In this document: one piece after another, positions 11,550-58,049 of the stretch
How positions within the stretch are numbered: the first letter of the stretch is position 1
How the letters are laid out: every line of letters begins with the position of its first letter
Assembly: GCA_038062875.1 (NCBI GenBank)
Contig: JBBTWF010000008.1
Coordinates: forward strand, 1 to 63,150
Direction: 5' to 3'
From: Patescibacteria group bacterium
GTDB taxonomy: Bacteria; Patescibacteriota; Minisyncoccia; UBA6257; UBA9933
DNA: 63,150 nt
Notes under the pieces: model-generated
Told to the model about the DNA's origin: nothing
What the model saw: only the letters and a program-made list of their open reading frames with translations
Databases searched by the model: none
Made by a program: the position numbers and the translations under genes

Positions 11550-13751
11550 TTATTTTTTGTGCGGATTATGATTCAGGCAGGTTTTATTTGAGCATCTTTC
11601 AGGAATAGTTTTTGAGCCATCCATCATTAATGAACCGCAGGAGTCGCAGATTTTACCGGTAGGCCGGGATTTCATAATAAAATCACATTTGGGATAACCG
11701 GAGCAAGAATAAAACGGACCAAATTTCCCGCGGCGCTCTACTATTTCGCCTCCGCCAGCCGGCGGAGCGCACTTCAAGCATTTTACTCCGGTTTTCGCTT
11801 TGGCTTCTTCTTCGGCGCTCTTTTTGATAAATCGACATTTCGGATAATTGCCGCAAGCGATAAACTTTCCAAATCTCCCTTCTCGCTCCATTAATTTTCC
11901 TGTTTTACATTCAGGGCATAATTCTCCGGTTTCTTTCGGACCCTCCATTTCTGAACCATCAATTTTTCTGGAACCAACGCATTTAGGAAATTTTTTACAA
12001 CTTAAAAATTTACCTGTTCTGGATAATTTAATAACCATTGAACCGTCGCAAACGAGACATTTATGTTCTTCTCCGGCTTCGCCAAGATTCGTTATTTTTT
12101 CCGCTGTTTTTTCTTTCTCTTTTACTTCTTTGGAAAATGGCTTATAAAAATCGCCTAACATTTTTTCATATTTTCTTTTGCCTTCTGCTATTTCATCCAA
12201 TTCATTCTCCATTTCCGCGGTAAACGAATCGCTGATATATTTAGCGAAATTTTTTTCAAGAAAATCACTTACCACTTCGCCGGTATCAGTCGGACAAAGC
12301 GCTCTCCCGATTTTTTCAACATAACCCCTGTCAACGATTGTTTTAATAATCGAGGCGTATGTGCTTGGTCTTCCGATTTCGCGTTTTTCAAGTTCTTTCA
12401 CCAAACCGGCTTCGGTATATCTTGGAGGCGGTTCTGTTTGCTTGCCCTGGCTTTCGATATTATTCAATTTTAATATTTCGCCTTCTGATAATTTAGGAAT
12501 TTGCGTTTCGTCTCCTTGAGCTCTTGTATCAACGGCGAGCCATCCAGGGAAAATAGTTATACTTCCGATTGTTGAAAAATTCGGGATTGTCGTTCGTCGT
12601 TGGTCGTTGGTCGTTGGTCGTTGGTCAATATTAGCCGACACTTTCGTTTTTAATATCTTGGCGTCAGCCATTTGCGAAGAGACCGCGCGTTCCCAAATTA
12701 ATCTATAAAGATTTTTTTGTTCGTCAGTCGTCCCGGCTGTTTTCTTACCGACATTAGTCGGTCGTATGGCCTCGTGCGCTTCCTGCGCGCTTTTACTTTT
12801 TGTTTTATACAATCGCGGTTCCAAATATTCTTTGCCAAAAGTTTTTTCTACTTCTTTATGGATCGTACCTAACGCTTCTTTACTGACATTCACGCTGTCA
12901 GTTCTCATATAGGTAATAAGCCCCTGCTCATACAATCTTTGGGCGACAAACATTGTTTTTGAAGGAGAAAAACCCAGGCGCGAGCTCGCGGTTTGCTGAA
13001 GAGTTGATGTAGTAAAAGGAGCGTAAGGAGTCCTTTTAACTTCGCTTTGTTTTATATTGATTATTTTCCACGGATTTTTCCGCCCCTCTTCAATAATGCG
13101 TTGCGTTTCTTTTTCGTCTTTGGGCTTAATATCGCAAGTTAAAATAATTTTGCCGCCTTTTTCGGTTTCCCATTCACCTGTTATTACCCAATAATTTTCC
13201 GGTATAAAATTCCTTATTTCCCGTTCGCGCTCCATTATTATGCGGAGCGCCGGCGATTGTACGCGCCCGGCTGATAATCCATAACGGACTTTTTTCCAAA
13301 TAAGCCCGCTTAAATCATAACCGACAAGTCGGTCAAGAACCCGCCGGGACTCTTGGGCTTTGCGCAGATTTTCATCAATATCTCTGGGGTGTTTGAACGC
13401 TTCCTTTATGGCATTTTCCGTTATCTCGTGAAAAATAACCCTCTTTGGATTTTTTAAACCGCATGCTTCTTTTATATGCCACGCTATCGCTTCTCCTTCG
13501 CGGTCAGGGTCGGTCGCGAGTATAACTTCGTCGGCTTTTTGAGACAAATTTTTTATTTCCGCGACCACTTTTTCTTTGCCTTTTGATATTTCGTAATATG
13601 GAATAAACCCGCCAGGGATATCAATGGCTTTTTTATTACTTTTCGGCAAATCGCGGATATGGCCGAAAGAGGACTCTATTTTATAATCTTTCCCTAAAAA
13701 TTTTGAAATTGTTTTTGCCTTTGTTGGCGACTCAACTATTATTAAATTCAT
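11550..13751 (-). CDS. topA: DNA topoisomerase I
   Basis: Toprim N-terminus (LIIVESPTKAKTI), conserved type IA core, and several C-terminal C4 zinc ribbons. Its start overlaps the dprA stop (ATGA). Confidence 0.96.
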   Translation of the reverse strand: MNLIIVESPTKAKTISKFLGKDYKIESSFGHIRDLPKSNKKAIDIPGGFIPYYEISKGKEKVVAEIKNLSQKADEVILATDPDREGEAIAWHIKEACGLKNPKRVIFHEITENAIKEAFKHPRDIDENLRKAQESRRVLDRLVGYDLSGLIWKKVRYGLSAGRVQSPALRIIMEREREIRNFIPENYWVITGEWETEKGGKIILTCDIKPKDEKETQRIIEEGRKNPWKIINIKQSEVKRTPYAPFTTSTLQQTASSRLGFSPSKTMFVAQRLYEQGLITYMRTDSVNVSKEALGTIHKEVEKTFGKEYLEPRLYKTKSKSAQEAHEAIRPTNVGKKTAGTTDEQKNLYRLIWERAVSSQMADAKILKTKVSANIDQRPTTNDQRRTTIPNFSTIGSITIFPGWLAVDTRAQGDETQIPKLSEGEILKLNNIESQGKQTEPPPRYTEAGLVKELEKREIGRPSTYASIIKTIVDRGYVEKIGRALCPTDTGEVVSDFLEKNFAKYISDSFTAEMENELDEIAEGKRKYEKMLGDFYKPFSKEVKEKEKTAEKITNLGEAGEEHKCLVCDGSMVIKLSRTGKFLSCKKFPKCVGSRKIDGSEMEGPKETGELCPECKTGKLMEREGRFGKFIACGNYPKCRFIKKSAEEEAKAKTGVKCLKCAPPAGGGEIVERRGKFGPFYSCSGYPKCDFIMKSRPTGKICDSCGSLMMDGSKTIPERCSNKTCLNHNPHKK
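11750..11767. repeat. GC-rich hairpin CTCCGCC-AGCC-GGCGGAG inside topA (encodes PPAGGG)
   Basis: A 7-bp stem and 4-nt loop. It is a variant of the CCGCCAGCTGGCGG family and is translated as APPAGGGE. Confidence 0.8.
12589..12626. repeat. Heptanucleotide tandem repeat (GTCGTTG x5.4; coding strand CCAACGA) inside topA
   Basis: Read directly from the sequence. Translated in frame as DQRPTTNDQRRTT. Confidence 0.95.
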
Positions 13752-56633: not shown

Positions 56634-58049
56634 ATGAAACTTACTTTTTACGGCGGTGCTAAAATGGTGACCGGCGCCAACTACTTGCTGCAAACTACAA
56701 ACGACAAACGACAAACAACGAGAATTTTGATTGATTGCGGGTTATTCCAGGGAAGCAATTATTACGAGCGGTTGAATTTTGAACCGTTTCCTTTTGACCC
56801 GAAACAAATTAACGCGGTTTTAATTACTCACGCCCACATTGACCATATCGGCCGTTTGCCAAAACTTTACAAAGACGGATTTCGCGGAAAAATATTCTCA
56901 ACCAAACCGACGAAAGAATTTGCTGAATACCTTTTAATTGATTCAATGGATATTTTAAATAAAGAAGCTGGCAAGAAAAATCTCTCGTCTATTTATAATA
57001 TTGACGATATCCAGGGAGCGATGAATTTGTGGGAAGGGATAGAATATCATCAGAAAATTAAAATCCCGCCAGCTGGCAGAGGTGGACTAGGGGCGGAATT
57101 TTTTGACGCAGGCCACATTCTCGGTTCGGCTTTTATAAGGGTTTCCGGGGAAGGCAAATCCGTTGTTTTCTCAGGCGATTTGGGGAATGTTGCCGCTCCG
57201 TTGGTTAAAGACACCGAAAATTTACCAGAGGCGGATTATGTTTTAATTGAATCAACTTACGGCAATCGGATTCACGAAGACGTAAAGCAACGGAAAGATA
57301 TTCTTGAAGACACAATTGAAGAGACATTCAAAGCTGGCGGCACTTTGATAATACCGTCTTTTGCTTTGGAAAGGTCTCAAGACCTTCTTTATGAATTGAA
57401 TAATTTAATTGAAAACGGGAAAATACCGAGAATGCCGATTTTTATCGACAGCCCGTTGGCGATTCGGCTGACTGAGGTTTACAAAAAATATTCCCAGAAT
57501 CCGGAATATCTTGACGACGAAGCCATAAAATTGGCGAAGTCTGGAGATTTGGTTTTTGATTTTCCCGGCTTGAAATTCACTTTAACAACCCAGCAATCAA
57601 AAGAGATTAATAATGTCGTTGGTCCGAAAGTGATTATCGCCGGAGCCGGGATGTCGCAAGGGGGCAGAATTTTACATCACGAATTCCGCTATCTCTCCGA
57701 TCCCAAGAGCGCTATTTTATTTATCGGTTATCAGGGGATAGGAACGCTTGGAAGAAAAATTATGGACGGCGCTAGAGCTATTAAAAAAGGGTTGAGTTCG
57801 GGTTTTTCCGTAAAAATATTCGGAGAAGAAATTCCGGCGCGCTGTCGCGTTAAGGCGATTGGAGGATATTCGGCTCACGCCGACCAAACGAAACTTTTAG
57901 AGTGGCTGGAGCCGATGCGCGCTAAAATTAAAAAGGTTTTTATAGTCCAGGGCGAAGGCGATCAAATGGTGCCATTCGCTCAAAAAATCAGAGATGAATT
58001 CGCGATAGAGGCGATAATCCCTTCAACAAATGACGAGGTTATGCTATAA
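56634..58049 (+). CDS. Metallo-beta-lactamase / beta-CASP family RNA-metabolising nuclease (RNase J/CPSF-like)
   Basis: HAHIDHIG (HxHxDH), beta-CASP motifs and a C-terminal His. It contains a heptamer tract and a PPAGR palindrome copy. Confidence 0.88.
   Translation: MKLTFYGGAKMVTGANYLLQTTNDKRQTTRILIDCGLFQGSNYYERLNFEPFPFDPKQINAVLITHAHIDHIGRLPKLYKDGFRGKIFSTKPTKEFAEYLLIDSMDILNKEAGKKNLSSIYNIDDIQGAMNLWEGIEYHQKIKIPPAGRGGLGAEFFDAGHILGSAFIRVSGEGKSVVFSGDLGNVAAPLVKDTENLPEADYVLIESTYGNRIHEDVKQRKDILEDTIEETFKAGGTLIIPSFALERSQDLLYELNNLIENGKIPRMPIFIDSPLAIRLTEVYKKYSQNPEYLDDEAIKLAKSGDLVFDFPGLKFTLTTQQSKEINNVVGPKVIIAGAGMSQGGRILHHEFRYLSDPKSAILFIGYQGIGTLGRKIMDGARAIKKGLSSGFSVKIFGEEIPARCRVKAIGGYSAHADQTKLLEWLEPMRAKIKKVFIVQGEGDQMVPFAQKIRDEFAIEAIIPSTNDEVML
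56691..56720. repeat. Heptanucleotide tandem repeat (CAAACGA-type, about 4 units) in the beta-CASP gene
   Basis: CAAACTACAAACGACAAACGACAAACAACG, translated as QTTNDKRQTT. Confidence 0.9.
57066..57079. repeat. CCGCCAGCTGGCAG, a one-mismatch copy of the CCGCCAGCTGGCGG palindrome, in frame (PPAGR)
   Basis: Read directly from the sequence. Confidence 0.85.

Follow-up and report, generated by a model that had tools for sequence, protein, structure and literature searches.

A family of very short GC-rich hairpin repeats inserted in genes and spacers of Paceibacteria

A 63,150-nucleotide stretch of a Patescibacteria genome (assembly GCA_038062875.1, contig JBBTWF010000008.1, positions 1 to 63,150; hereafter the window) carries a short GC-rich palindrome in frame within several unrelated protein-coding genes. 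This 16-nucleotide (nt) palindrome is one form of a wider family of hairpins that have a common stem, TCCGCC/GGCGGA, closed by a loop of 3 or 4 nt. The family is a true repeat family, enriched far above chance, whose members are insertions, have been gained or lost repeatedly at one and the same site, differ in copy number from lineage to lineage, occur nested within one another and decay with time. With a probability of roughly 0.55, these sequences are miniature non-coding hairpin repeats of Paceibacteria that spread by copy-insertion and are kept where translation tolerates them.

The palindrome and its hairpin family

An earlier note on this DNA had described a 14-nt palindrome, CCGCCAGCTGGCGG, in five unrelated genes, and its count is borne out. 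At up to two mismatches, this sequence has exactly five matches in the window, at 11752 (one mismatch), 13947 (none), 17445 (one), 34181 (none) and 57066 (one), compared with 0.11 expected from dinucleotide shuffles, of which 0 of 100 reached five. In four of the five copies the 14-mer is bordered by T and A, and the real unit is therefore a 16-nt palindrome, TCCGCCAGCTGGCGGA; the palindrome proposed in the earlier note is real, but its length has to be revised, and it represents only one member of a family with 3- and 4-nt loops that also occurs in tandem and nested arrangements. The unit is 75% GC in a genome of 39% GC (a value of about 39% holds for the window itself), and sequence information reaches over a palindrome of 18-20 bp, with A favoured at positions -1 and -2. 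No additional 16-mers were found in the approximately 9.5 kb added on each side of the window. A sequence in the comM-like gene, TCCGCCAGCCGTTGGA at 18538-18553, has three mismatches and is not in the PPAGG frame; it may be a chance match or a strongly decayed copy.

All five copies occupy the same codon frame of their host genes, CCG CCA GCT GGC GG, two of them on the minus strand and three on the plus strand. The resulting peptides are CAPPAGGGE in topA, where the copy is located in the CxxC knuckle of the C-terminal zinc ribbon, SNPPAGGQN in dprA, INPQAGGNE in a DksA/TraR zinc finger, VNPPAGGGK in the last gene of a type IV secretion system (T4SS)-like operon, 2.7 kb from dnaA, and IPPAGRGG in a beta-CASP RNase (Table 1). 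The codons involved are not rare in the window, CCG making up 41% of proline codons and GGC 36% of glycine codons, and the probability of the palindrome's codon string given PPAGG is 0.003. Moreover, all PPxGG or SAxGG peptides in the open reading frames (ORFs) of the window are encoded by DNA of the palindrome or its stem family.

The extent of the family was assessed in a comparison set of 1.45 Mb, consisting of 80 related loci of Paceibacteria and the extended window contig (the window plus about 9.5 kb on each side, 82 kb in total). AT-rich repeats aside, no inverted repeat is commoner in this set than TCCGCC-N4-GGCGGA, of which 15 loci together have 27 copies. The shorter arms CCGCC-N4-GGCGG and CCGCC-N3-GGCGG occur 31 and 16 times, respectively, whereas most other spacings, inverse arms and direct arrangements occur 1-6 times. 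The 4-nt centre is mainly AGCT or one transition away from it (GGCT, AGTT, GGCC). When loops of 3 and 4 nt and at most one arm mismatch are allowed, the set contains 58 family members where local shuffles give 3-6, a more than 10-fold enrichment, and 11 of them lie in the extended window contig. The possibility of a restriction target at CAGCTG, raised in the earlier note, loses its ground here: the contig shows a single restriction-modification system, of HinfI type, the centre is variable (AGCT, GGCT, AGTT, GGCC, AATT), and the forms with 3-nt loops lack CAGCTG.

The 3-nt form is represented in the window by a tandem pair in murE, TCCGCCATAGGCGGA followed by TCCGCCAAAGGCGGA, which the earlier list of copies had missed; two such copies compare with 0.08 expected. 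Double hairpins also occur in tsaD, rpoB and tatD on the same contig, outside the window. All four are alignable over 34 nt and read SAxGGSAxGG, with Lys as the next residue in all but one. On the coding strand, the murE, rpoB and tatD copies pass directly into an A-run; the tsaD copy does not. The second loop of the tsaD double hairpin holds a nested palindromic insertion of 30 nt. The tsaD and tatD copies have common flanks, including a direct repeat, CTAAATTCT, seen around these two only. The tsaD double hairpin lies within what we take to be an insertion of about 26 residues relative to E. coli TsaD. The intragenic copies are all in frame, six in the window and three elsewhere on the contig.

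Hairpins predicted for the DNA have folding energies of -7.8 and -12.9 kcal/mol (z about -4). Predicted stability is weakened to -4.9 kcal/mol at the 17444 copy and the hairpin is lost (-1.4 kcal/mol) at the 57065 copy, while one double hairpin in locus L246 carries a compensated stem variant, TCAGCC/GGCTGA.

Other GC-rich hairpins are present in the same DNA. A second palindrome family, CCTGCC-N4-GGCAGG, occurs in the window at 17159-17174 and 43523-43538 (intergenic) and in loci L024 (11962) and L065 (13331). Perfect GC-rich hairpins with still other stems are found in coding regions at 19499-19526 (rsmA), 47286-47311, 34636-34651, 11089-11106, 2382-2393 (rpoC), 30987-30998 and 60482-60497, and some of them overlap or stand in tandem. 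Separate from the repeat family, CCCGCCCAATTGGGCGGG followed by TTTTGG at 15539-15556 looks like an ordinary intrinsic terminator.

Insertion, turnover and spread among relatives

The window is near-identical to part of a 115.7-kb groundwater metagenome contig from Hainich (0.1-um fraction; ENA ERZ1292625), and its nearest GTDB genomes belong to the Paceibacteria/Parcubacteria of the candidate phyla radiation (CPR), including Wolfebacteria, Paceibacterota, Jorgensenbacteria and others. As judged by alignment with homologues, the copies in TopA, the DksA-like protein, the beta-CASP RNase and MurE are insertions, and the family recurs in relatives and metagenomes; the earlier view of a DNA element rather than a protein motif is hereby supported.

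TopA provides the broadest comparison. Six of 81 orthologues have three to five extra codons in the zinc-ribbon knuckle CPxC-[KK]-GEIVERRG, whereas in about 70 orthologues the knuckle contains only two residues and neither PPAGG nor the palindrome; the window TopA is four codons longer than the latter. In TopA of the window and of loci L016, L019, L028 and L035, the three to four extra codons are the palindrome, so that orthologues with PPAGG at this position also carry the DNA element. The refuting condition set in the earlier note, PPAGG in orthologues without the palindrome, was thus checked here, and the outcome speaks for an element at the DNA level. The palindrome at the knuckle of L085 is read in another frame, giving ASAGRRN, and L024 has a different GC palindrome, CCTGCCTGTCGGCAGG, of the CCTGCC-N4-GGCAGG family at the same position. 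The TopA tree places the five PPAGG carriers apart from one another, each beside sisters that lack the insertion; this distribution calls for five or more gains or else for many precise losses. Among the five orthologues, identity at third codon positions is 0.91 in the motif versus 0.46 in the flanks, a difference that fits either recent independent insertion of one sequence or selection on the DNA.

Other host genes give a similar picture. The DksA-like protein has four additional codons relative to L014, L016 and L028, and the dksA gene of L015 has the insertion in common with the window, in the decayed form CCGCCATCTGGCAAA. In DprA the palindrome is absent at this position from all 77 orthologues and is unique to the window, where it lies in a hypervariable linker. 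Compared with T. thermophilus TTHA0252 (2dkf), the beta-CASP RNase has an insertion of exactly five residues, PPAGR, at its copy; compared with T. maritima MurE (4bub), the window MurE has one of 12 residues, and the double hairpin lies in it. In murG, L020 has 42 nt more than its sister L022 (about 90% identical in the region), which consist of the palindrome and two other GC hairpins, with the short stretch between the inserted hairpins read in a shifted frame. L022 murG has an AT-rich insertion of its own (ILNSKFQIPNS) elsewhere in the gene, and these genomes may thus have a further kind of loop insertion, one that is AT-rich.

Even close relatives differ markedly in copy number, with 11 family members in the extended window contig as against 0, 1 and 0 in the sampled regions of L014, L015 and L017. 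Protein clusters at 90% identity, checked for strain-level presence or absence, contained singletons or fragments only. A metagenome scan with the 17-mer ATCCGCCAGCTGGCGGA, which detects only the perfect AGCT form with an A flank, returned at least 120 stretches. Among the 120 listed, 107 have less than 50% GC, although chance would favour GC-rich DNA. Coding status, approximated by ORFs of at least 100 aa, divides the listed sites into 63 within such ORFs and 57 in none, and the former comprise 36 reading PPAGG, 15 SASWR and 12 xRQLA; all three frames are used, with PPAGG favoured. The in-frame PPAGG reading described in the earlier note accordingly applies to all five window copies but is no intrinsic property of the palindrome, as relatives also read SAxxR or xRQLA and about half of the listed metagenome sites are non-coding.

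Non-coding copies are found in several settings. They are located 20-35 nt downstream of tRNA genes in L018, L023, L053 and L185, and one is found in a 5S-23S spacer. In L156, the palindrome forms the apex of an expansion of about 130 nt in 23S rRNA, in the hairpin loop near model position 1218; this 23S rRNA gene (6010-9519) also has a group I intron at 6689-6929. Copies also occur next to tRNA-like fragments, following a duplicated 5' half of a tRNA-Met-like gene that ends in the anticodon loop in L165 (1-150) and preceding a T-arm and acceptor-CCA fragment in L185 (3596-3660). In-silico excision at the fragments in L161, L165 and L185 (6-45 nt, 20 start positions) restored no tRNA. L250 has four copies in 5 kb, three of them within a repeat of about 250 nt between toxin-antitoxin cassettes. 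This unit is present three times (3730-5100) between small toxin-antitoxin genes (PIN-like, HEPN/MNT, AAA ATPase) in a layout resembling a cassette array, and it also holds the hairpins AGCCTGCAGGCAGGCT and ATCATGCC-N4-GGCATGAT. Intergenic copies are often extended into longer stems.

When a recurrent neighbour gene or transposase was sought in 70 low-GC metagenome loci, no family occurred in more than four of them. Only 12 of the first 80 listed metagenome loci have any gene in common with the origin region of the window. In L151 and L171, TopA or RpoBC is only 42-52% identical to the window orthologues, and the motif therefore probably extends beyond the immediate order. Matches in viral contigs were mostly GC-rich and attributable to chance. 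Among L103, L106, L107, L111, L113, L121, L141 and L147 (IMG/VR) and L096, L122 and L125, however, viral contigs of about 50% GC, representing one phage family, have an extended form, GTAAATCCGCCAGCTGGCGGATTTAC, in as many as three copies within 34 kb, and three viral contigs of about 40% GC have TGTTGTTCCGCCAGCTGGCGGAACACCA in common.

An AT-rich, heptamer-like intergenic repeat (CTAAATT/CTAAATC, GGATTTAG) is also present at 8290, 19415 and 52614 (CTAAATTCTAAATCC), at 13962-13985, and at contig positions -8193, -8005 and 72308. It flanks the dprA, tsaD and tatD hairpin copies, where it is read as ILNS/LNPK; in L154, L156 and L163, copies are bordered by similar runs of GGAATTT.

The window includes a classical origin block, with the cumulative GC-skew minimum at dnaA-dnaN. 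The T4SS-like operon, whose final gene holds a palindrome copy, directly adjoins this rnpA-dnaA block. A YraN/UPF0102 gene, of the PD-(D/E)XK nuclease kind, is present at 16201-16596.

Table 1. Hairpin copies on the contig, followed by genes of the window (gene identities in the window from Pfam assignments)
Feature	Position	Strand	Details
topA copy CTCCGCCAGCCGGCGGAG, 18-nt hairpin	11750..11767 (16-nt core 11751-11766, loop AGCC)	minus	PPAGG, residues 663-667
dprA copy, perfect TCCGCCAGCTGGCGGA	13946..13961	minus	PPAGG, residues 228-232; hypervariable linker before C-terminal domain
DksA/TraR-type zinc-finger gene copy TCCGCAAGCTGGCGGA, one mismatch	17444..17459	plus	PQAGG, residues 77-81
Perfect 16-nt palindrome in last gene of T4SS-like operon (33908-35026, no Pfam hit)	34180..34195	plus	PPAGG, residues 92-96
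beta-CASP metallo-beta-lactamase RNase copy CCCGCCAGCTGGCAGA, decayed	57065..57080	plus	PPAGR, residues 145-149; two mismatches vs 16-mer
murE tandem double hairpin TCCGCCATAGGCGGA + TCCGCCAAAGGCGGA	55441..55470	plus	TCCGCC-ATA-GGCGGA TCCGCC-AAA-GGCGGA, then AAAAAA; read SAIGGSAKGG
tsaD double hairpin	L013 1415-1500		same contig, outside window
rpoB double hairpin	L013 7648-7677		same contig, outside window
tatD double hairpin	L010 20111-20140		same contig, outside window
parA	7476-8246		
parB	8313-9293		
relA, topA, dprA, DksA/TraR zinc-finger gene, comM-like gene	in window		Pfam
T4SS-like operon	21973-35026		TrbL_3, PrgI, TraC-like, VirB4/TraG-type ATPase, T4SS pilin
rpmH-rnpA-yidC-jag	35056-36800	minus	part of classical origin block
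dnaA	36944-38311		
dnaN	38420-39535		

Copying, selection and other explanations

A common stem with alternative loops, tandem and nested copies, sibling hairpins, permissive sites, bursts and decay together make up the anatomy of a dispersed repeat. In the mechanism proposed here, the repeat would exist in two forms, a single 16-nt hairpin with the loop AGCT and two hairpins in tandem, their loops 3 nt long, that precede an A-run. New copies would arise as small insertions of about 9-42 nt, at times as several hairpins together or within the loop of an older copy, and would last only where they are harmless, namely in tRNA-gene spacers, at the tip of an rRNA expansion or in frame in flexible surface loops. 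As flexible loop peptides, PPAGG (single form) and SAxGG (double form) would be the best-tolerated readings, with SASWR and IRQLA less benign, and such a survival filter on the host gene would produce the frame bias and the uniform PPAGG frame in the window. The copies would afterwards drift and decay. Candidates for the copying process are a hairpin-specific enzyme that acts in trans on single-stranded DNA (ssDNA) and short templated repair patches, possibly helped by horizontal exchange, which among competent bacteria could account for an identical sequence in patchy lineages. The element itself would probably be selfish or neutral rather than useful.

Several points weigh against this mechanism. 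Neither a transposase nor a recurrent neighbour gene was found in the 82-kb part of the contig or in the 70 metagenome loci, and no mobilising enzyme could therefore be identified in this material; we know of no mechanism that moves a unit of 16 nt. No consistent target-site duplication is seen at the TopA, DksA-like and murG insertions, and the inserted lengths vary (9, 12, 13, 15, 29 and 30 nt). The stem is identical across lineages in which TopA is only about 62% identical, and probably across greater distances (L151, L171); selfish repeats are normally species- or genus-specific, and such deep identity would fit a conserved reader protein, that is, selection. Likewise, the 0.91 synonymous identity in TopA could stem from purifying selection, and copy number is low, at about one per 7-50 kb.

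It is possible, albeit doubtful, that the palindrome is a selected recognition site, with TCCGCC..GGCGGA read by a conserved Paceibacteria protein that binds either duplex DNA as a dimer or a hairpin of ssDNA or RNA. The reader might be a nucleoid-organising, replication/repair or RNA-processing factor for which a few dozen sites are selected, the coding ones at places where PPAGG or SAxGG is tolerated. This explanation accommodates the identity of the stem across deeply diverged genomes, the conservation of synonymous positions in the TopA copies relative to their flanks (0.91 versus 0.46), the information over 18-20 bp with A at -1 and -2, and the recurrent position 20-35 nt downstream of tRNA genes. 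Sites for Noc and SlmA are also few, in numbers comparable to those of the palindrome. However, the copies originate by insertion and not by point mutation, sites are not kept between sister genomes, and some have decayed to the point of hairpin loss. The coexistence of 3- and 4-nt loops with tandem and nested copies fits a dimer site of fixed geometry poorly, the same places have also received sibling hairpins whose stems differ, and no candidate reader protein was identified.

A structural signal acting in cis, such as a terminator, an RNA-processing hairpin or the core of a site-specific recombinase target, with the intragenic copies as by-products, is improbable. The copies 20-35 nt downstream of tRNA genes and in the 5S-23S spacer, those abutting tRNA fragments in L165 and L185, the three of four L250 copies within a repeat unit between cassette-like toxin-antitoxin genes and the lengthening of intergenic copies into longer stems are compatible with such a function. 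Half of the copies, however, lie inside essential genes on either strand, and the intragenic ones lack the arrangement of an intrinsic terminator (a hairpin and U-run at the end of a gene): they have no U-run, and the double hairpins carry an A-run on the coding strand. Excision in silico restores no tRNA, and no recombinase gene is associated with the copies.

Even less can be said for a DNA uptake sequence (DUS) that accumulates by molecular drive, including in genome-maintenance genes, a function that the earlier note had considered. Competence-related genes are present in the window (dprA, the comM-like gene, pilus genes and the T4SS-like operon). DUSs have a reported bias toward genome-maintenance genes, of which the hosts topA, dprA and the nuclease are reminiscent, and identical insertions are patchy across lineages. 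On the other hand, the Neisseria DUS and the Haemophilus uptake signal sequence occur about once per kb, whereas the palindrome reaches only about one per 7-50 kb (11 in 82 kb; 58 in 1.45 Mb), which speaks against the idea. The palindromic hairpin shape, the variable loop and the origin of copies as insertions rather than products of point mutation do so as well. Synonymous sites in the flanks of the common TopA insertion have diverged, so that there is no sign of recent allele transfer.

The palindrome was also considered as a non-canonical parS, the site of the ParABS system encoded 2.5 kb away, marking the origin region. Both parS and the Noc-binding site (NBS) are palindromes of 14-16 bp, often intragenic and numbering from a few to tens; the present palindrome, at 16 bp and close to parAB and oriC, resembles them. 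Five copies lie within 25 kb of dnaA, and parA-parB, dnaA-dnaN and the GC-skew minimum are all in the window. A canonical site, allowing up to 2-3 mismatches from the parS consensus TGTTNCACGTGAAACA, is absent from the 82-kb origin region and from the 80 related loci, 53 of which have parB. The window ParB has ESQAR in place of GHAR, with Ser at the position of G201, a residue reported to be absolutely conserved (PMC7383237).

Nevertheless, the identity with parS is rejected. The same ParB retains the parS-contact residues defined in that study (Q162, G170, K171, S172, R173, N178 and R204; PMC7383237), which argue for a TTTC-type site, and ParBs of related loci (L014-L093) are of both ESQAR and EGHTR types, with the palindrome occurring alongside either of these helix types. 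Its sequence is unrelated to the parS consensus and to TGTTTCACGTGAAACA or ATTTCCCGGGAAAT. The copies are dispersed: they occur in an rRNA gene, in tRNA spacers and in a toxin-antitoxin island, include 3-nt-loop and tandem forms, and are found in metagenome loci of which only 12 of 80 have any origin-region gene in common with the window. A parS variant, TTTC-N4-GAAA, shows no excess in the window, and ATTTCATGAAAT, which recurs across loci, encodes the conserved TopA peptide (V/I)FHEI and is not a parS variant. The apparent absence of canonical parS near parB in 53 Paceibacteria loci merits a study of its own.

Finally, a conserved PPAGG protein motif or plain chance, suggested by the PPAGG-like peptides of all five window copies, is refuted by the expectation of 0.11, the unrelated hosts, the same DNA in other frames and in non-coding positions, and the lack of these residues in most orthologues.

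Relation to known repeats and biological meaning

Among in-frame palindromic repeats, the hairpin family stands out by its much smaller size and its wider conservation. Its closest analogues conceptually are the Rickettsia palindromic elements (RPEs), and the earlier comparison with these was apt in concept. RPEs are palindromic repeats of about 150 bp in ten sequence families (RPE-1 to RPE-10), each with a conserved peptide of tens of residues, and are present in tens of copies, in frame in unrelated genes and in non-coding DNA (PMC10969869). The hairpins resemble them in being palindromes dispersed over a small genome whose bearer depends on a host, and in having entered unrelated housekeeping genes, often in frame, as well as non-coding DNA. 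The length and peptide module of RPEs (about 100-150 bp) are not matched, as the unit measures 16-34 nt and adds 4-12 residues. RPEs are not known outside one genus and are not especially GC-rich, unlike the 75% GC hairpins, whose sequence is constant across a class-level radiation.

Organellar genomes offer a second parallel. The GC clusters of yeast mitochondria and the PstI palindromes of Neurospora are short GC-rich hairpins of about 18-60 nt in several classes. As with these, the host genome is AT-rich and compact, and the copies are optional among relatives, occur in tRNA spacers, in rRNA and in frame, and cluster and nest; the present family differs from the mitochondrial clusters in being bacterial and in having a single common 6-bp stem in many species.

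Repetitive extragenic palindromic (REP) sequences, their REPIN doublets and the associated RAYT enzymes provide a precedent for short hairpin repeats that occur as singlets and doublets with lineage-specific copy number, and they make a trans-acting, hairpin-specific ssDNA enzyme a plausible mover. REPs are extragenic, 20-40 nt long, have a GTAG head and reach hundreds of copies in a species-specific manner. By contrast, all window copies and 63 of the 120 listed metagenome sites are intragenic (the latter by the ORF measure of at least 100 aa), and the doublets are direct tandem hairpins. No GTAG is present in the flank profile, and no Y1_Tnp Pfam hit or RAYT-like gene was found among the genes of the 82-kb contig part.

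Unlike miniature inverted-repeat transposable elements, the repeats consist of an inverted repeat and a 3-4-nt loop only, with no internal segment and no consistent target-site duplication. HIP1 of cyanobacteria (GCGATCGC) is likewise a GC-rich palindrome over-represented in coding and non-coding DNA over a large clade. HIP1 is 8 bp long, has a density of about one per kb or higher and is a product of substitution, whereas the present repeat is longer, sparser and arises by insertion.

No paper containing the palindrome sequence, and none linking DNA uptake sequences or palindromic repeats to CPR, was found in the literature searched. Tentatively, the 16-nt hairpin may be the smallest self- or enzyme-propagated element described, copied by an activity conserved in Patescibacteria or belonging to a mobile element and kept identical by horizontal exchange, or else the dispersed site of a radiation-wide DNA- or RNA-binding system. 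If propagated, it would be copied, among other sites, into rRNA expansions and into loops both of essential proteins and of its own older copies.

If the copy-insertion explanation is correct, the genomes of CPR/Patescibacteria, usually called streamlined, would harbour an undescribed family of ultra-short GC-rich hairpin repeats that remodels surface loops of core proteins (RpoB, TopA, MurE, MurG, TsaD and the beta-CASP RNase) and lengthens rRNA. It would be by far the shortest in-frame selfish DNA, a class previously best known from Rickettsia and mitochondria, and would raise the question of which enzyme copies, or which protein reads, a hairpin of 16 nt. In uncultured lineages the repeats could also be used to type strains and to mark recent insertions and losses. 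Annotators of CPR proteins would have to reckon with a possible repeat origin of short insertions rich in Gly, Pro, Ala and Ser.

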